DNA of 54,933 nucleotides from Chiloscyllium plagiosum (GCF_004010195.1 NC_057749.1:6106637-6161569); one strand, 5' to 3'. Positions 14,556-52,040 are shown, counted from the stretch's first letter. A program made the numbers and translations. The notes: generated from the letters alone by a model not told the origin.

Positions 14556-14816
<261 letters not shown>

Positions 14817-17186: not shown

Positions 17187-18188
17187 ATCAGAGTGGTGCT
17201 GGAAAAGTCAGGCAGTATCCAAGGAGCAGGAAAATCAATGTTTTGGGCAAAAGCCCTTCATCAGGAATAGAGGCAGGAAGCCAATAAAGATAAATGGGGG
17301 GCGTGGGGCTGGGGGGAAGGTAGCAAAGAGTACAATAGGTGAATGGGGGTGGGGATGGAGGTGATAGGTCAGAGAGGAGGGTGAAGCGGATAGGTGGGAA
17401 GGGAGATTGACAGGCCATGAGGAAAGTGCTGAGTTGGGAGGTTGGTTGAAGATGCCCTCCAACGCATCTCATCCACATCCCGCACCTCCACCCTCAAACC
17501 CTACCCCTCCAACCTTCGCATTAACCACATCATCAGCCGACATTTCTACCTCCTCCAAATGGACCCCACCGCCAGGGATATATTTCCCTCCCCCTCCCCT
17601 TTCCGCTTTCCACAAAGACTGTTCCCCCCGTGACTACCTGGTCAGGTCTATTACCCCCNNNNNNNNNNNNNNNNNNNNNNNNNNNNNNNNNNNNNNNNNN
17701 NNNNNNNNNNNNNNNNNNNNNNNNNNNNNNNNNNNNNNNNNNNNNNNNNNNNNNNNNNNNNNNNNNNNNNNNNNNNNNNNNNNNNNNNNNNNNNNNNNNN
17801 NNNNNNNNNNNNNNNNNNNNNNNNNNNNNNNNNNNNNNNNNNNNNNNNNNNNNNNNNNNNNNNNNNNNNNNNNNNNNNNNNNNNNNNNNNNNNNNNCAGC
17901 ACCATCCTCATGACCTGTCCTACCTGCCAATCTCCCTTCCCACCTATCCGCTCCACCCTCCTCTTTGACCTATCAGCTCCATCACCACCCCCATTCATCT
18001 ATTGTACTCTTTTGTACCTTCCCCCGCCCCCCGCCTCCCCATTTATCTCTCCACCATGGAGACTCCCTACCTCTATTCCTGATGAAGGGCTTTTCCTGCT
18101 CCTCGGATGCTGCCTGATCTGCTGTGTTTTTCCAGCACCACTCTGATCTAAACTCTGGTTTCCAGCATCTGCAGTCCTCTCTTTTGCC
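17187..18188 (+). mobile_element. Penelope-like element 3' fragment with inverted 5' arm, family A (contains assembly gap)
   Basis: 17187-~17440 is the reverse complement of 17897-~18150. The ORF-derived part 17449-17658 begins with sequence matching the PLE at 27420. Perfect 15-bp TSD TAGGGGATTGTTAAG (17172-17186; 18189-18203). Confidence 0.88.
17659..17896. other. Assembly gap (238 N)
   Basis: Run of n characters. Confidence 1.
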
Positions 18189-23588: not shown

Positions 23589-24075
23589 AGGAGAAAGTGA
23601 GAACTGCAGATGCTGGAGACCAGAGTTGAAAAATGTGGTGCTGGAAAAGCGCAGCAGGCCAGGCAGCATCTGAGGAGCAGGAGAATCGACATTTCGGGCA
23701 TAAGCCCTTCTTCAGGAATGACAGGTCTGGGAGAGTGTTGACCTGAGCTGGGGCAGAGCTGACTGCAGGGAGTGTAGGTAGCGGCGCATGGCCGCGAGCG
23801 TGGAGTGGAGAATCCGGAGGGAGGTCTGTTGTTGGAGGCTTCGGATTTGTTGCAGATACTGGTTGTCCTGGTTGGGTCCAAATTGTGTTGGTCTGAATGT
23901 AGTCTGGAGTCCATGCGGGGTCAGTCGGTTCCATAGGCAGGTGCTGAGGAAGGAGATGTGGCTGTGGTAGCGAGTCTGTTTCAGGACGTGGCTGAAGAGC
24001 TTCAGGGCAGAGGAGATGACTTGGGGGAAGGGCTTATGCCTGAAACGTCGATTCTCCTGCTCCGCGGATGCCACC
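23589..24075 (-). mobile_element. Fold-back PLE insertion, family A, enclosing a ~300-bp open ORF fragment
   Basis: Full terminus arm 23589-23720, short inverted arm ~24027-24072, and stop-free minus-strand frame VISSALKLFSHVLKQTRYHSHISFLSTCL..TLAAMRRYLHSL between them. Perfect 14-bp TSD ATGACTAGACAGAG (23575-23588; 24076-24089). Confidence 0.85.
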
Positions 24076-25935: not shown

Positions 25936-26274
<339 letters not shown>

Positions 26275-27131: not shown

Positions 27132-27350
27132 CCAATGTCATCTTTTAAGCCCAGTTGAGAGAGTTGACGGGACCCAGGAAAACAGTTTAATAAAAGTAAA
27201 TCATAGTATTAGAGAACCTTGGAACTGCTCTGTCATCAGAGGGAGACAATTGGTGGTGAGTTTAACCCAAGGGTTACCACCCCTCAGATAACATTGAGAA
27301 GACAGAACTTTCATGGAGAGCTTGTCTGTATGTGACTTGAGCCCATACTA

Positions 27351-28216
27351 TTGGCATCCACAGAACACACCAGACGGTCTCCTTCTTTAAAGACCGTAAT
27401 TTCCCTTCCCACATGGCTGAAGGTGCCCTCCAACACATCTCATCCACGTCCCACACCTCTGCCCTCAAACCCCACCCTTCCAACCACAACAAGGATAGAG
27501 CCCACCCCCCCTCCCCTGCCACTGCAGGAATTGCAAAACCTGCACCCACACCTTCTCCTTCACCTCCATCTAAGGCCCCAAAGGAGCCTTCCACATCCAT
27601 CAAAGTTTCACTTTCACTCGCACATCCACCAATGTCATCTATTGTATCCATTGCTCCCGAGGCGGTCTCCTCTACATTGAGGTGACTAGACACCTTCTCG
27701 CAGAGTGCCTTAGGGAACATCTCCAGGACACCTGCACCAATCAACCCCACTGCCCCGTAACCGAACATTGCAACTCCCCCTTCCACTCTGCTGAGGGCAT
27801 GCAGGTCCTGAGCCGCCTCCACCGCCACTCCCTCACCACCCGACGCCTGGAGGAAGAACGCCTCATCTTCCGCCTCAGAACTCTTCAACCCCAGGGCATC
27901 AATGTGGACTTCACCAGTTTCCTTATTTCCCCTCCTCTGACCTTACCCCAGTTCCAACTTCCAGCTTAGCACCATCCTCAATACCTATCCTACCTGCCAA
28001 TCTTCCTTCCCACTTATCCGCTCCACCCTCCTCTCTGACCTATCACCTTCATCCACACCTCAATCCACCTATTGCACTCTCAGTTACCTTCTCCACCATC
28101 CCACCCCCATCCCATTTATCTCTCCACCCCGGAGGCTCTCTGCCTCATTCCTGATGAAGGGCTTTTGCCTGAAACGTCGCTTTTCCTGCTCGTCGAATGC
28201 TGCCTGACCTGCTCTG
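27351..28216 (+). mobile_element. Penelope-like retroelement 3' region with frameshifted GIY-YIG endonuclease
   Basis: Frames give TSTNVIYCIHCSRGGLLYI, LAECLREHLQDT..HCNSPFHS and RRLEEERLIFRLRTLQPQGINVDF, the PLE GIY-YIG signature. Followed by a C-rich 3' UTR and a hammerhead. Confidence 0.88.
28148..28180 (+). ncRNA. Minimal hammerhead ribozyme motif in PLE 3' end
   Basis: TTC-CTGATGA-A-GGGC(TTTT)GCCT-GAAA-CGTC-GC: intact core, stem II with a G-U pair, palindromic ACGT, GUC triplet; stem I weak. Confidence 0.72.
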
Positions 28217-41355: not shown

Positions 41356-41544
41356 TTGTTCAGAGCGTTAGATGAAGTATGGGTGAAGTTTTAGAAGATC
41401 AGTGAGCTATATTTAGAGACAGAAAGGAGTACGCCTACTACAATATTGAAGTGATAGTTATGGCCCTTCAGGTAGATCCTAATGGTTGTTAGGAAAAGAC
41501 CATTGAAAAGCTTCCCTCAATTTCATAACTGGTCAAGGTTTCAC

Positions 41545-42052
41545 ATAGAGTCATTGAGATGTACAGCACGGAAACAGACCCTTCAGTCCAACTCTTCCAT
41601 GCCGACTAGACATCCCAACCCAATCTAGTCCCACCTGCCAGCACCTGGCCCATATCCCTCCAAACCCTTTCTATTCATATACCCATCGAGATGCCTTTTA
41701 AATGTTGCAATTGTACCAGCCTCCACCACTTCCTCTGGCAGCTCATTCCATACACGTACCACCCTCTGCATGAAAAAGTTGCCCAGTAGGTCTCTTTTAT
41801 ATCTTTCCCCTCTCACCCTAAACCTACACCCTCTAGTTCTGGACTCTCCGACCCCAGGGAAAAGACTTTGCCTATTTACCCAATCGATGCCCCTCATAAT
41901 TTTGTAAACCTCTATAAGGTCTCCCCTCAGCCTCCGACGCTCCAGGGAAAACAGCCCCAGCCTGTTCAGCCTCTCCCTGTAGCTCAAATCCTCCAACCCT
42001 GGCAACATCCTTGTAAGTCTTTTCTGAACCCTTTCAAGTTTCACAACGTCTT
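41545..42052 (-). mobile_element. Young 5'-truncated CR1 LINE
   Basis: Stop-free DVVKLERVQKRLTRMLPGLEDLSYRERLNRLGLFSLERRRLRGDLIEVYK..GYGPGAGRWD and intact 3' UTR. Confidence 0.92.
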
Positions 42053-42391
42053 TCAGGACTGTCTTAGGAAAGGAAAGGATTGATGAGGCAGGGATTTGAC
42101 TTGTGAGATGAAAAGAGTGGGAAGGGAGGAGGAAAGTCAGATGAAAGATGGTGCAGGAGAGGAAGAGAAGAAGAAATTTGGTGAGGGAGAAGAGAAGGGG
42201 AACAGTAACAAAGATCAGTGTTATGGTCCCAGCTGATGTTATCACTGGACAAGTAGTGAAATCTAGCATGGTGGATTTTGTTTTGATGAGACTTAAGCAT
42301 CCAAGGCTGCATATTTGCTTTAAAAAAACCTGAAGCCTATTACAAAAGAGAAAAATAATGATAAAATGAAACAAACCTGGCTGTCGAAATC

Positions 42392-44435: not shown

Positions 44436-45002
44436 GTTGTGGCTTGCTGTAAGGAGCTGATTTACCAGACATTGAAACAAATTGATGGCTTAAGCTGACC
44501 AAAGAGTTAATCAAACTGCAAGTTAGAAAAACAATTATTTTATGGGTAGGATCAGCATTTGTTGTCCATCCTTAGCAGCTGCCTTTGAACTGGAAGCTAG
44601 ACCATTGAAGAGGGCAGGTCTCAGAGTCAACCCCATGACTCAAGAGTGCACATAGATGAGAATGAACCAAATGGATTGTATGATAATCAAATCTAGCTAC
44701 TTGATCACCAAAGATAATGCAGCAGATTGTAATTCTCACTGCAATAGCATTTGAACCATGCCCCCATTCATATTTCTAGACCACTACAGCACTCTGCACT
44801 AGTTTATCAATTCCCTGCAACGTGGAAGCAGGCCATTCAGCCCATACCAACTTCCAAAGAACCTCCCGCTTTAGACCCATCCTATCCTTGAATTTCCCCT
44901 GGCCAATCTACCTAACTTGCACATCTTTGGAGTGTGGGAGGAAAGCGGAATACCTGGAGGAAACCCACACAGACACAGAGAGAATGTGCAAACTCCACAC
45001 AG

Positions 45003-46290
45003 TCATAGAGACTTACAGTCATAGAGTCATAGAGATGTATAGCATGGAAACAGACCCTTCGGTCCAACCTGTCCATGCCGATCAGATATCCCAACCCAAT
45101 CTAGTCCCATTTGCCAGCACTTGGCTCATATCACTCTAAGCCCTTTGTATTCATAGACCAACCTAGATGCCTTTCAAATGTTGCAATTGTACCAGCCTCC
45201 ACCACTTCCTCTGGCAGCCCATTCCAATAATACTCCACCCTCTGCGTGAAAAGTTTGACCTTTAGGTTCCTTTTTTATTTTCTCCTCTCACCCTAAACCT
45301 ATGCCCTCTATGATCCACACTTGGGATCCCCCACCCCATGGAAAAGACCTTGTCTATTTATCCTATCCATGCCCCTCATGATTTTATAAATCTCTATAAG
45401 GTCACCCATCAGCTTCTGATGCTCCAGGAGGAAACAACCCCAGCCTATTCAGCTCAAATCCTCCAACCCTGGCAACATCCTTATAAGTCTTTTCTGAACC
45501 CTTTCAGGTTTCACAACATCTTTCCGATAGGAAGGAGACGAGAATTGCATGTAATATTCCAAAAGTGGCATAACCAATGTCCTGTACAGCCACAACATGA
45601 CCTCCCAACTTGTATACTCAATGCTCTGACCAATAAAAGAAAGTATACCAAACACCTTCTTCACTATCCTATCTACCTGCGACTCCACTTTAAAGGAGCT
45701 ATGAATGTGCACTCCAAGGTCTCTTTGTTCAACAACACTCCCTAGGACCTTACCATTAAGTGTATAAGTCCTGCTAAGATTTGCTTTCTCAAATGCAGCA
45801 CCTTGCATTTATCTAAATTAAACTCCATCTGCCATTCCTCAGCCCATTGGCCCATCTGATCAAGATCCTGTTGTAATCTGAGGTAACCTTCTTTGCTGTC
45901 CACTACACCTTCAATTTTGAAATCATCTGCAAACTTAATAACTGTACCTCTTATGCTCGCATCCAAATCATTTATGTAAATGACAAAAAGTAGTGGACCC
46001 AGCACCGATCCTTGTGGCACTCCACTGGTCACAGGCCTCCAGTATGAAAAGCAACCCTCCATCACCACCCTCTGTCTTCTAAATTCAAGCCAGTTCTGTA
46101 TCCAAATGGCTAGTTCTCCCTGTATTCCGTGAGATCTAACCTTGCTAATCAGTCTCATGTGGGGAACCTTGTCGAATGCCTCACTGAACTCCATATAGAT
46201 CACGTTCACCACTTTGCCCTCATCAATCCCCTTTGTTACTTTTTCAAAAATCTTAATCAAGTCCGTGGGACACGATTTCCCATGCACAAA
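45003..46290 (-). mobile_element. CR1 LINE, ~1.3 kb RT domain to 3' end
   Basis: ORF 45742..46287 AFDKVPH..VTSGVPQGSVLGPLLFVIYINDL..KFADD..LQQDLD; frameshifted continuation in 45449..45808; (CATAGAGT)n tail. Confidence 0.95.
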
Positions 46291-47207
46291 GACTATCCTT
46301 AATTCTGGAGTGTCAGCAGCATGGTTGAAGTAGAAGATGGTTGCACTGCTGTACTAAAGGGCCATGGTCTTTATACCCCAAGTGTGGATCAAGAGCTAAA
46401 GCAACAAAGCTGTTGGACAAAGAACACAAACTACTTATTGGTGATAACCCCTATGAGGCCCAAAGAGAATTATTGATTCATCTCATTGTGGACGTCATAG
46501 AGAAGAGTTCTCTTGGTAACTGGCAACAGCCTGCCGCGCTGAAACTCATCAGTTGAGCCATCTTATAACCCCCTCTTCCACAGTTACATTTGTGCCCAGA
46601 TTTCCTTTGAGAAGGAGCACAGTGTATCCATAAATGCTGTCAATGCCTCAGAGAGAGAGGTGGGCACTGCGTCGGATACTGTGCTTTATACCCCCCCCCT
46701 CCCCAACTCCAGTTCCTCCTTCCAACTCTAACTTTGGTTTCGTCCCTTCCTGCTCTCCCTACCCCACCTCACCTTTGAAAGTTGCATTACCTTGAATAAG
46801 CTTTGCTTGTAAATATTCAGTTGGATACATGGGTGTTTTTACTGATGGTGCTGTGCTAGCTATAAACAAAAAGAAAAAAAATCGCAGTGATTTTGGTGGT
46901 GGGAAGGTGCTCAGTTGTGTGTGATAACACTTCTGGGCAGAGAAAGAAAGGGATAAAAAGCAGATGCAGATTAGGTCTGCAGAACTGTCTGTCCCAGTCC
47001 GGGAACGAGTGTATCTATTCCATGAGTCGTGGCTCTGTTTTGGTATTCAGCATAAATGAGGCTCCTTTCCAGTCAGGCTTCCTAAGTTATTGCATTATTA
47101 GTTGTGCCAGATTAGTGCATGAGAATGAGGCAGCATTTACAAGTTATTTGTCTGCAATCAATTTTGCTTGAGCTGGAGATATTGGAGGGAAGGATGTAGG
47201 GGGTAAG

Positions 47208-49298: not shown

Positions 49299-49734
49299 GT
49301 TTCGGGGCTTGAGCATGAAACATAATTGACATGTTCCAGAAGCAGAATTTGGGAGTCCTGGAAACAGGTTAGATGTGAGATGGAAAGCTGTCTAGTTGTG
49401 ATGATACAGAGATAAGGATTTGATCTCACAAATCAAGTAGCTGCCATTGGAAATGTCAATAGATTTGAATCAAGATACAGGTGACAAATGCTAATTAACT
49501 AATCATGTATCCATGCTTATCAGCGGGCAATGGTGATATCACTTATCCTTGCCATTCCTTTGACTGAGAGACAAAATGATGAGGTCCCTGGACAGTGTGG
49601 ATCGAGAAAAAAGTGTTCCCATTGTTAGAACAAGATGGCACAGGTATTTGACTAAAGTAGTAATGGAGACATGAGGAAAGATTTGTTCTCCCTGCAAATG
49701 GTTAGGTCTAGAATGCATTGCCCAAGACTGTGAT

Positions 49735-49950
49735 GTAGACAAACGGGAGGCTGGAAGAACACAGCATGCCAGGTAGCATCAGGAAGTGGAGAAGTTAACG
49801 TTTCAGGTATAACCCTTCTTCAGGACTGAAGAAGGGTTATTCCAGAAACGTTGACTTCTCCAGCTCCTGATGCTGCCTGGCTCATTGTGTTCTTCCAGCC
49901 TCCTGCCTGTCTACTTTGGATTCCAGCATCTGCAGTCTTTTTTGTCTCTA
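49735..49950 (+). mobile_element. Fold-back PLE-derived insertion, family C
   Basis: ~90-bp arms meeting at ..CCCTTCTTCAG-GA-CTGAAGAAGGG..; both arms have CTGAAGA..GAAACGTT; TSD CAAGA(C/T)TGTG at 49723-49732 and 49952-49961. Confidence 0.85.
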
Positions 49951-50964
49951 ACAAGATTGTGCGGGAGGGAGGATCGATTGAGGTGTTCGACATGGGGTTG
50001 GATTTTTATTCAAAAGAGAAGGTGGTGCAGGGGAATAGCACTGGGTGCATTGCTAATTTGGAGATGTAGAGCAGTTATGACAGGCTGAATGGCCCCCATT
50101 CTATAATTCTATGACAGATCTTAGGGGGACATTATTTTAAGAAACCTTTTTAGAAATTTGTTTCTAAATTATCAGCAAGAATTACTGACTACTGATTCCT
50201 GTGTGTGTGCACAAAAGCAAGCTCTGTAGCATTACAGAAAGCATACCTATCTGCTAAAAACTATCAAAAAAGATGAATGATACTAAAACTGTTCAGAGAT
50301 CATATTCTCTATGTAATTCGATGCGACTTAAATTTAACATTAAGTCTGATTAACTGGGAAACTATTTCATTCATGCTATTTCTAATGGTCCTCACCATTC
50401 CCACTAAGAATTCTTAGTTTGCAAGTCTGACATTCCTGTCAGCTTTGTCCGAAACAAAAATGAATTATGAATTCTTCAGAATACAGCAAGGAGTCTGATT
50501 AAATGTGTTGCAGGTGATCGAATGGTTGGGAGTTATTGTGTTGTTTGATATCAGATGGATTTCAATGCATTTCAATAAGGGCTCATTGAGTTGGAGATGC
50601 TGAGATTAGCTGGTCTAACAATAGGAGCAGTCAATATCTTTGCTACTTAATTCAGTTGCAGCTGAGGAAGTATTCTTTGGACTTGAATTGCATGTCGTGG
50701 TCTTGCATCAATTAATTCACAATTCCAGTGATGGAAGCTTAAAAGAATTTCTGCAGTGACATGGAAGCATTGGTGTCAGCATTGCGATCCCAGCAGTTGT
50801 GAGAAGCTGCATCAAAGAGACTGCAGCTTTTTAATGAACTGTTCACTTTAAGTTCTCTTTGTTTGACACTGTGCACGACGAAAGTAAAAAACAATCAATT
50901 CTGTCAATGTTGTTTAGCTAAAACAAACAGAAACATCTCCCCAACAAGCTACTTACATAGGCAT

Positions 50965-51408
50965 TGGAAGAGTACAGTGGATCAGGCAGCATCCAAAGAG
51001 CAGGAGAATCGACGTTTCGGGCATAAGCTCTTCATCAGGAGTTTTTAATCGGAAAGAGAAGGTGGTGGAGGGCAACAGCGCGAGGTGCATTGCTAATTTG
51101 GAGATGCAGCGCACTTACGACAGGCTGAAGGCCTCCTTTCTGTAATTCTGTGACATCTTAGGGGGACAATATTTTAAGAAACCTTTTTTAGACACTTGTT
51201 TCTGAATTATCAGCAAGAATTACTAACTGCAGATTCCTTTATGTGTGCACATAAGCAAACACAGTAGCATCACAGACACATTCCTGATGAAGTGCTTATT
51301 CCCGAAATTTCGATTCTCCTGCTCCTCAGATGTTGCCTGACTGGCTGTGTCTTCCAGCACCACATTTTTCAACACTGATTTCCAACATCTGCAGTCCACA
51401 TTTTCTCC
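50965..51408 (+). mobile_element. Family A fold-back PLE insertion carrying a copy of neighbouring intron DNA
   Basis: Left arm to 51040, spacer 51041-51276 homologous to 50003-50238, right arm 51277-51408; flanks CAAGCT...TACATAG on both sides. Confidence 0.85.
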
Positions 51409-51472
51409 CAAGCTTTATACATAGTCCACTCTGATTTAGACTTTTGGAATCCTGTTGTTTTAAGGTCAGCTA

Positions 51473-52040
51473 CATAGAACATAGAACAGTACAGCTCAGG
51501 AACAGGCCCTTCAGCCCATGATATTGTGCTGAACATGACGCCAAATTAAACTAATCCCTTCTGCCTGCACCTTGGTCCACGTCCCTTTGTTCCTTGCATA
51601 TTCATGTGCTCATCTAAAAGTTCCTTAACCACTACCTCCCCCCCACCCCCATTGTACCTGCCTCCAGCACCACACCAGGCAGAGCGTTCCAGACTCCTAC
51701 CACTCTCTGTGTAGAAGACTTGACCCTCACATCTCCTTTGAACTTTCCCCCTCTCACCCTAAAGGCCTGCCCCCTAGTTTTAGACATTTTGACCCTGGGA
51801 AAAAGTTTCTGACCATCAACCGTCTAATTTTATAGACTTACCCTCAGCCACCGCTGCTCCAGAGAAAACAACCTGAGTTTTTCTAGCTTCTCCTTATAGC
51901 TCACATCCTCTAATCCAGGCAACACCCTGGTAAACCTCTTCACCTTCTCCAAAGCCTCCACATCCTTCCTGTAATGTGGCAACCAGAATTGAACACAATA
52001 TTCTAAGTGCGGCCAAAACAAAATCTTATAAAGCTGCAAG
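51473..52040 (-). mobile_element. 5'-truncated CR1 LINE
   Basis: ORF 51830..52039 PHLEYCVQFWLPHYRKDVEALEKV; (CATAGAA)n tail. Confidence 0.87.

Follow-up and report, generated by a model that had tools for sequence, protein, structure and literature searches.

The DNA analysed here is a stretch of 54,933 nucleotides from Chiloscyllium plagiosum (NC_057749.1:6106637-6161569), referred to below as the window. At 50961-51406 it carries an insertion, lying within a degenerate target-site duplication (TSD), whose two inverted arms are ends of a very abundant Penelope-like element (PLE). The 236 nt between the arms (the spacer) are a same-orientation copy of a segment located upstream (the donor), probably in the same intron of the host gene. 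One of the donor's two parts is the 3′ end of a long interspersed nuclear element (LINE). The locus comprises the following features:

50003-50238, plus strand: donor in its original context, ~115 nt of an old LINE 3′ end followed by ~120 nt of single-copy, probably intronic DNA
50940-50960, no strand: left copy of the TSD, degenerate (CCCAACAAGCTACTTACATAG, read from the sequence)
50961-51040, minus strand: left arm, an inverted, tail-less, 5′-truncated PLE end with a nearly intact putative minimal hammerhead core on the minus strand (51011-51038)
51041-51276, plus strand: spacer, the captured copy of 50003-50238 (MAFFT, blastn, global alignment and contig depth)
51277-51406, plus strand: right arm with a tail of ~43 nt, a direct 5′-truncated PLE end with a decayed putative hammerhead core (51284-51311)
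51407-51424, no strand: right copy of the TSD (CCCAAGCTTTATACATAG, read from the sequence)

The spacer is a copy of the upstream segment

The donor at 50003-50238 matched 51042-51276 end to end in the same orientation, with 85.3% identity over 238 columns (E 1.2e-71; MAFFT, and blastn within the window). In a global alignment that included flanks we counted 218 matches and 17 gap columns, along with 34 mismatches, half of which (17) were transitions; this corresponds to 86.5% identity without gaps. A first-pass annotation of this DNA had described the spacer as a same-orientation copy with roughly 80% identity by eye; both alignments bear out the duplication, and the figure was slightly low compared with the measured ~85%. 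Using blastn at E≤1e-3, only these two copies and no third match were found in the window.

A profile built from 10 LINE 3′ ends of the window revealed how the LINE part of the donor continues upstream, where a second fold-back element (el1) interrupts it:

49572-49735, plus strand: upstream part of the donor's LINE 3′ end, split off by el1 (nhmmer, profile positions 16-196, E 5.3e-9)
49735-49950, plus strand: el1, an insertion in the LINE made up of a head-to-head PLE end (related subfamily, loop of 3 nt)

The upstream hit stops exactly at the left edge of el1, and the profile also matches 50024-50115 collinearly (positions 275-370; E 0.037, weak alone). Since the LINE 3′ end continues upstream of 50003 across el1, the donor copy is ancestral. 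The spacer starts in the middle of the LINE and ends in unique DNA, as expected of a segmental copy of the upstream locus, and we rejected on these grounds that it is the original or an independent LINE insertion. We conclude that the upstream copy is the original. The composition of the donor was also apparent from public contigs of four runs representing three organisms (A, B and C), from which copy numbers were estimated at a likeness threshold of 80%: summed contig depth was ~4-6 times that of single-copy DNA over 50005-50126 and dropped to single copy from 50127. The profile matches and the depth step at ~50127 agree with the first-pass annotation, according to which the copy spans an old junction between a LINE tail and unique DNA. 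The LINE nature of the donor was missed by tblastn (among the best 40 matches) and by blastn (short collinear seeds only), and the LINE part of the spacer itself gave no nhmmer match at E≤10.

Over 180 nt, the fold-back el1 is 84.4% complementary to itself. It shares 73-77% similarity with the arms of the composite insertion and carries hammerhead-like cores on both strands (49826-49852 and 49797-49823). It ends 52 nt before the donor starts, close to the ~50 bp noted in the first pass. At gathering score Rfam recognized nothing anywhere in the window, and at E≤10 over 49600-51500 it returned only sub-threshold matches resembling microRNA (miRNA) precursors, all on the el1 hairpin. The best of these models reached 44 bits at 49746-49904, compared with a gathering score of 85; we regard this as a sub-threshold hairpin look-alike effect that provides no evidence of a miRNA.

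A single LINE family dominates the window (for example 33-1003, 41522-42053, 44997-45942 and 51466-51839). Its 3′-end profile gave 34 nhmmer matches at E≤0.001, and one copy retains an RVT_1 domain (45745-46353, minus strand).

The arms are ends of a Penelope-like element

A blastn search with the right arm and its tail returned 22 matches in the window (E≤0.01). Identity to other copies reached 86% over 131 nt. We grouped these matches by eye into 13 loci (c1-c13, the present insertion being c12), 11 of which have both arms. A longer copy, c7, has an ORF (open reading frame) remnant (27574-27966) directly upstream of the arm sequence, and over 108 aa this remnant shares 74% identity with P0007, a shark protein. 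In P0007 an RVT_1 domain (E 0.0077) is followed by GIY-YIG (E 2.5e-4; 21.7 bits, the cut-off being 22.6), both below the Pfam gathering scores, and this order is the one expected for an endonuclease-containing PLE. The ORF remnant itself had no Pfam match at E≤0.01, and a Pfam scan of 341 stop-to-stop frames of at least 55 aa found no GIY-YIG in the window itself.

PLE copies in the window have a tail of ~43 nt at one end only, plus TSDs, which were read by eye for c3, c6, c9, c10, c11, c12 and c13. Published PLE insertions have, according to the available text of two studies, a 5′-truncated copy with an adjacent inverted 5′-truncated copy, a tail of 30-40 bp at one end and a TSD (Craig et al. 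2021, PMC8557442; PMC3846280). The one-ended tail and the TSDs match this anatomy. We conclude that the arms represent the putative hammerhead-bearing end of a very abundant PLE.

The minimal hammerhead of PLEs is characterized, in the available text of Cervera and De la Pena (PMC4209133), by CUGAUGA, one additional nucleotide ahead of helix II, pairing of G10.1 with C11.1, GAAA and a palindrome at positions 15.2/16.2. Hammerheads were called with a regular expression and a count of helix pairs, the arm features also including CG at 15.2/16.2 and GUC. Nine motif matches were found in the window, seven in five copies of the family and two in a second fold-back family (2133-2210). The five copies are c1 (14039), c3 (23688-23715, minus strand), c7 (28151), c11 (both strands) and c12 (both arms). 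In c12 the left arm (51011-51038, minus strand) has all the features of a minimal hammerhead (CUGAUGA, an extra A, GAAA, CG and UC) with 3/4 pairs in helix II, and the right arm (51284-51311) is decayed, with 2/4 pairs and UU at 15.2/16.2. The ribozyme label of the arms is a reading of motifs, and we therefore refer to a putative hammerhead.

Two further loci were characterized in the course of this comparison. The longer copy c7 (27300-28216) is 5′-truncated, has no inverted partner and stops at its 3′ end before the tail; its decayed ORF remnant of the GIY-YIG endonuclease type is followed by the putative hammerhead-bearing end (28151-28178; helix II 4/4 pairs, CG, GUC). The fold-back at 2082-2261 belongs to a different, younger family, with arms that are 93% complementary over 180 nt and hammerhead-like cores on both strands (2133-2161 and 2182-2210; helix II 4/4 pairs, GC at 15.2/16.2).

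Arms, spacer and tail form a single insertion

The two TSD copies, CCCAACAAGCTACTTACATAG and CCCAAGCTTTATACATAG, agree at 15 of 18 aligned positions, in keeping with the degenerate duplication that the first pass had seen around the copy. Arms, spacer and tail all lie within this one TSD and thus represent one event. The inverted arms are 86.4% complementary over 59 nt (50982-51040 and 51282-51340) and agree at 64 of 80 positions over their full length. Folded as single-stranded DNA, 50961-51406 pairs its arms around the spacer with a minimum free energy of -82.8 kcal/mol (z -7.8; 0/100 shuffles equal).

We considered whether two PLE insertions might flank a pre-existing local duplicate by coincidence, or whether the structure might be an assembly error at an inverted repeat. 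The PLE family is extremely abundant and its inverted repeats do break assemblies, as at c2, which has a run of N at its centre (17659-17896). The TSD, however, flanks the whole composite, the left arm has no tail of its own, and arm, spacer and arm are collinear in independent contigs from the four runs and three organisms. Either explanation is in our view scarcely credible.

At the left junction of the spacer, ...CATCAGGA is the end of the arm and ...TTGGA/TTTTTA the donor sequence, with GGA common to both; the first pass had already placed the start of the copy at this GGA at the arm end. On the right, where the donor reads ..GCATACCT and the element ..ACATTCCT, homology continues into the arm. 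Past the junction the donor continues ...ACAGAAAGCATACCT and the element ...ACAGACACATTCCTGATGA, CCT being exact and CAT[A/T]CCT agreeing at 7/8, and the blastn match accordingly reaches 50248/51285, past the right junction into the arm. The sequence CATTCCTGATGA at this junction is the PLE family's own, being present in c1, c3, c7 and c13. There is thus an exact microhomology of 3 nt at either junction, GGA on the left and CCT on the right.

Our best reading is that, while two cDNA ends were joined at integration, template switching guided by microhomology produced the filler from a local template, an account that we consider somewhat more probable than not. The junctions also bear on a competing explanation, in which a near-perfect palindrome resembling el1 was inserted first and a break or stalled fork at its centre was repaired later, either by synthesis-dependent microhomology-mediated end joining (SD-MMEJ) or by replicative template switching, copying the 236 nt. 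Break repair that makes templated insertions classically leaves microhomology alongside a close template in cis, and here exact 3-nt microhomologies occur at both junctions with a template in cis within 1 kb. The insertion moreover lies exactly at the centre of symmetry of a strongly folding palindrome with arms of 80 nt, and perfect palindromes are known for their instability and for becoming stabilized through central rearrangements. On the other hand, 236 nt is long for typical templated insertions of the polymerase-theta type. The signature of SD-MMEJ or of break-induced replication mediated by microhomology (MMBIR), namely 3-nt junction microhomologies with a template 0.7-0.95 kb away, is equally expected from template jumping by a reverse transcriptase.

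The spacer is single copy and the chimera has not moved

In each run ~35,000-55,000 contigs aligned on the 1.8-kb stretch around the locus (~45,000 in one run), most of them on the PLE arms. Summed depth over the arms reached 8.4 million, compared with 18.3 for a single-copy contig (run X1), placing the arms at ~10^5-fold. In the core of the spacer (bins 51103-51163 and 51164-51224), the summed depth equalled that of the lone bridging contig in 4/4 runs (18.3/18.3, 12.6/12.9, 35.3/39.9 and 11.8/9.94). The spacer is thus not a high-copy repeat. It is not part of the PLE consensus either: inward of 51040 and before 51279, the loose-end consensus of the other genomic copies starts ATGAGGC... and finishes ...CCACAAGCCT, which is PLE sequence also found in c1, c2 and c7 and differs from the spacer. 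The PLE-internal stretches of c2 and c7 (17269-17431, 17897-18090 and 27968-28162) show no similarity to the spacer. Both findings go against what the first pass had named as grounds for discarding a capture.

A spacer acquired elsewhere was also considered, i.e. a source element, for instance a PLE copy adjoining the donor, whose RNA included flanking DNA and which retrotransposed as a whole unit, as happens in LINE transduction or in amplification of the Pack-MULE type. A PLE fold-back, el1, does end 52 nt upstream of the donor, and PLEs can move unrelated sequence framed by their own repeats, according to the available text of PMC3846280. The spacer core is nevertheless single copy in all four runs, and no other arm-spacer-arm arrangement was detected at ≥80% likeness, the window holding only the two copies of the spacer sequence. 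The right end of the donor (50239) has no adjoining PLE arm, and el1 is from another subfamily (73-77% identity with the arms) and is placed such that its flank would not end up upstream of the right arm. Furthermore, the spacer sits at the truncation junction between inverted arms and not downstream of the tail. Transduction of this kind is therefore very unlikely. The composite element is a 5′-truncated end without coding capacity, and the chimera is single-copy, dead and non-mobile.

The event predates the split of three related organisms

Contigs of organisms A, B and C (four runs) contain both the donor and the arm-spacer-arm structure. Using a criterion of 31 letters, the right junction was bridged by contigs of A and B, and both junctions by two contigs of organism C. 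Organisms A and C differ over the locus by ~3% (33/1066; 10/343), compared with ~14%, about five times as much, between donor and spacer, indicating that the event is several times older than the split of the organisms. We conclude that it predates the split of all three.

The identity between spacer and donor (85-86.5%) is similar to that between the arms of this insertion (80-86%) and falls within the range of arm-pair identities in 10 family fold-backs of the window (70-91%). These matching identities are consistent, within a wide error, with capture at or near integration. A repair event that followed the insertion would have to have done so closely, because the divergence of spacer and donor is as high as that of the two arms.

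Deletions distinguish organism C, of 16 nt in the donor (at 50217) and of 7 nt in the spacer (at 51122). The donor of organism C also has C and G at 50010 and 50012, where the window has T and A. At 50012 it is nearer to the spacer, as expected if the donor of the window lost a CpG there.

Inner junctions of other copies of the family

Genome-wide, copies of the family are mostly head-to-head pairs of 5′-truncated ends with a variable inner junction, and many different arm-arm joints occur in contigs, running from 51024-51040 to 51277-51315 and in some cases containing a few unrelated letters. In seven of the 11 two-armed copies in the window (c1, c5, c8, c9, c10, c11 and c13) the arms meet directly or within ~12 nt, at differing positions. 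Two copies have longer arms: those of c2 comprise at least 230 nt of PLE-internal sequence around an assembly gap, and those of c6 are ~30 nt longer, with a centre of ~95 nt of unassigned origin. In c3 the spacer is 306 nt long and forms an open frame 87% identical to N-termini of repeat-like shark ORFs. The present case, c12, is the only two-armed copy of the window with a filler of local host DNA. The junction is where variation arises among copies of this PLE.

This comparison bears on the timing of the copying. The seven copies with closely joined arms are of similar age and have no central insertion, which weighs against later repair, and the variable junctions together with the filler in c3 point to integration as the step at which junctions are formed. 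Repair of an earlier palindrome is the main rival explanation and, in our view, the less probable one.

The spacer of c3 may be a second heterologous filler, copied from the RNA of another repeat. This copy of the same family (23590-24071, minus strand; spacer 23721-24026) has a perfect 14-nt TSD. Its spacer ORF is 63-87% identical to the N-termini of repeat-looking shark gene models (P0002-P0006), and the spacer has no second copy within the window. The relatives of the ORF are unnamed or mis-named shark gene models only, without reverse transcriptase domains, and a protein atlas gave only generic helical look-alikes.

The long-armed fold-back c2 (17190-18177; arms at least 230 nt, ~76% complementary) has the run of N at its centre that is the window's only assembly gap. 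Assemblies are known to break at PLE inverted repeats, and the gap is in line with this.

Host gene context

The Pfam scan of the window yielded two exons of a host gene, one RVT_1 domain and a sub-threshold SMP_LBD match on the opposite strand of the second exon. The exons are:

14556-14816, plus strand: cNMP_binding exon (Pfam, E 4e-8)
25936-26274, plus strand: cNMP_binding exon (Pfam, E 5e-5, below the gathering score)

They represent the two halves of a cyclic-nucleotide-binding domain, 11 kb apart, and PLE fold-backs and LINE ends crowd the intervening intron. From their translations we take the domain to be of the HCN type. No later HCN exon was found in the window with short motifs, which is a weak negative, and the region at 50-51 kb probably lies within the following intron. 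Host exons, spacer and the arm with the tail share the plus strand. The orientation is thus compatible with a sense pre-mRNA as the template, and is not proof of one.

A model for the copying step

In vitro, the purified protein of another PLE cuts the two strands of the target and extends them; it begins reverse transcription at two internal sites that are adjacent to each other and close to the ORF start, the interval between them being the tail (Frangieh et al. 2024, PMC11167929). Priming on both strands with two start sites would give head-to-head arms with a tail on only one of them. On this basis we propose that reverse transcription, primed by the two nicked strands of the target close to where the PLE RNA begins, gave two short 5′-truncated cDNAs of ~80 nt and ~130 nt, head to head, only one with a tail. 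In most copies the free 3′ ends of the two cDNAs would then be joined directly at a variable joint. In the present case one growing end would have left the PLE template at a microhomology (CAT[T/A]CCT on the right, GGA on the left) and copied 236 nt from a template in the same intron, 0.7-0.95 kb upstream of the target site. Joining of the extended end to the other arm would have left a dead chimera, a fossil of the joining step. No function can be assigned to the chimera.

The sense of the template would depend on which cDNA switched. The tail-primed (bottom-strand) cDNA would require a template of plus sense, either the nascent sense pre-mRNA or the plus strand of the DNA, and the other cDNA a template of minus sense. 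A more specific version, in which the tail-primed cDNA jumped from the PLE RNA to the nascent sense pre-mRNA of the same intron in an actively transcribed HCN-type gene, held in place by the transcribing polymerase, and copied 236 nt from it before the joining to the second cDNA, appears doubtful to us. That the copying occurred during integration, which polymerase performed it (PLE reverse transcriptase or a host enzyme) and which template was used (pre-mRNA or DNA) are all points that we infer. The first-pass annotation had assumed that the PLE machinery switched onto a local template at integration; local copying guided by microhomology at the arm-arm junction emerges as the best-supported part of that claim, and its timing, its agent and the pre-mRNA template did not attain the same standing.

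As a further candidate we tried a 5′ inversion of the LINE type by twin priming. It was rejected, both arms covering the same ~80 nt of the element with no non-overlapping upstream segment.

Several points weigh against template switching at integration. No feature of the sequence times the copying relative to integration, and host repair of a break at the palindrome centre is expected to leave the same microhomology signature. The comparison of ages has a wide error (16/80 versus 34/252 mismatches), and the arms were perhaps not identical at birth. Locally derived filler occurs in only one of the 11 two-armed copies of this window, from which no generality emerges. All three organisms have the full structure, with no empty site or spacer-less fold-back among them, and the left junction is bridged at the 31-letter criterion only by the two contigs of organism C, those of A and B having 26 and 28 letters on the arm side. 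As regards the element itself, the RVT_1 and GIY-YIG matches on the PLE-related protein are below the Pfam gathering scores, and the Rfam covariance models detected no hammerhead either at gathering score in the whole window or at E≤10 over 49600-51500; this silence is expected, since the motifs have no helix III. Finally, the placing of the locus in an intron depends on the finding of no later exon with short motifs.

Comparison with known systems

The insertion resembles canonical PLEs in its inverted 5′-truncated pair, one-ended tail, hammerhead motif near the start of the ORF, and the cleavage and extension of both strands described for such elements (PMC8557442, in its available text; PMC11167929). 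The tail is 30-40 bp in these descriptions compared with ~43 nt here, and the available text of the two papers mentions no heterologous filler at the inverted junction (PMC8557442, PMC11167929). In the rotifer Adineta vaga, unrelated host DNA has been found between Penelope terminal repeats within TSDs, as reported in the available text of Arkhipova, Yushenova and Rodriguez (2013, PMC3846280). As in the shark, the host DNA is framed by PLE terminal repeats and a TSD, and the authors invoke template jumps and point out palindromes at inverted junctions. The rotifer captures differ in that they lie between direct or solo terminal repeats (pLTRs) and comprise whole intron-containing genes, with spacers of 0.9-1.5 kb and no local donor reported in the same text (PMC3846280). 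The shark case, in a vertebrate, is a 236-nt segment exactly at the junction of inverted 5′-truncated ends, with a donor 0.7-0.95 kb upstream and microhomology at either end. That PLE repeats can enclose captured host DNA is thus already known from rotifers and the shark case is a vertebrate example; what it adds is that a donor has been identified locally in cis and that microhomologies can be read where the inverted truncated ends meet.

Chimeric retrocopies and 5′ inversions of LINE-1 arise by template switching and twin priming, the reverse transcriptase leaving its own RNA and the second target strand acting as a second primer. LINE-1 chimeras differ from the present one in that they contain abundant RNAs from anywhere, and the twin-priming inversion derives from a more 5′ region, whereas here both arms derive from the same region and the template is local. 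Pack-MULEs are DNA transposons in which a host fragment lies between terminal inverted repeats within a TSD, the donor is retained and the chimeras are mobilized and amplified. The shark insertion likewise has a host fragment between the terminal repeats of an element, within a TSD and with the donor retained. The likeness ends at propagation, the shark chimera being a single-copy dead retroelement end. The Pack-MULE-like capture route proposed in the first pass cannot be upheld for a single-copy, 5′-truncated dead end without sign of further mobilization.

Templated inserts made by MMEJ or MMBIR are usually shorter than the spacer described here. They resemble it in that either junction has microhomology and the template is close by in cis, and differ in arising by host repair and not by retrotransposition (on such insertions, see PMC2943611 and PMC8421209). 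A literature search whose coverage left out most subscription journals found, in the texts available, no description of locally templated filler at a PLE inverted junction, and a term search of the accessible text of a 2026 retrozyme preprint returned nothing on inverted junctions, capture or sharks.

How two PLE cDNAs are joined and why inverted and tandem structures arise are open questions according to PMC11167929 and the available text of PMC8557442. This single old event changes little alone, and since the chimera made no further move, it is not a new way of capturing genes. A junction filler with a nearby donor in cis and microhomology at both ends is nevertheless a concrete footprint of the joining step of PLEs. 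If the pre-mRNA was indeed the template, the fossil would record PLE integration coupled to host transcription and would show how PLEs acquire intron-containing host sequence. Given the enormous number of fold-backs in these sharks, the fillers at their inner junctions could reveal whether the PLE reverse transcriptase uses local RNA or DNA.

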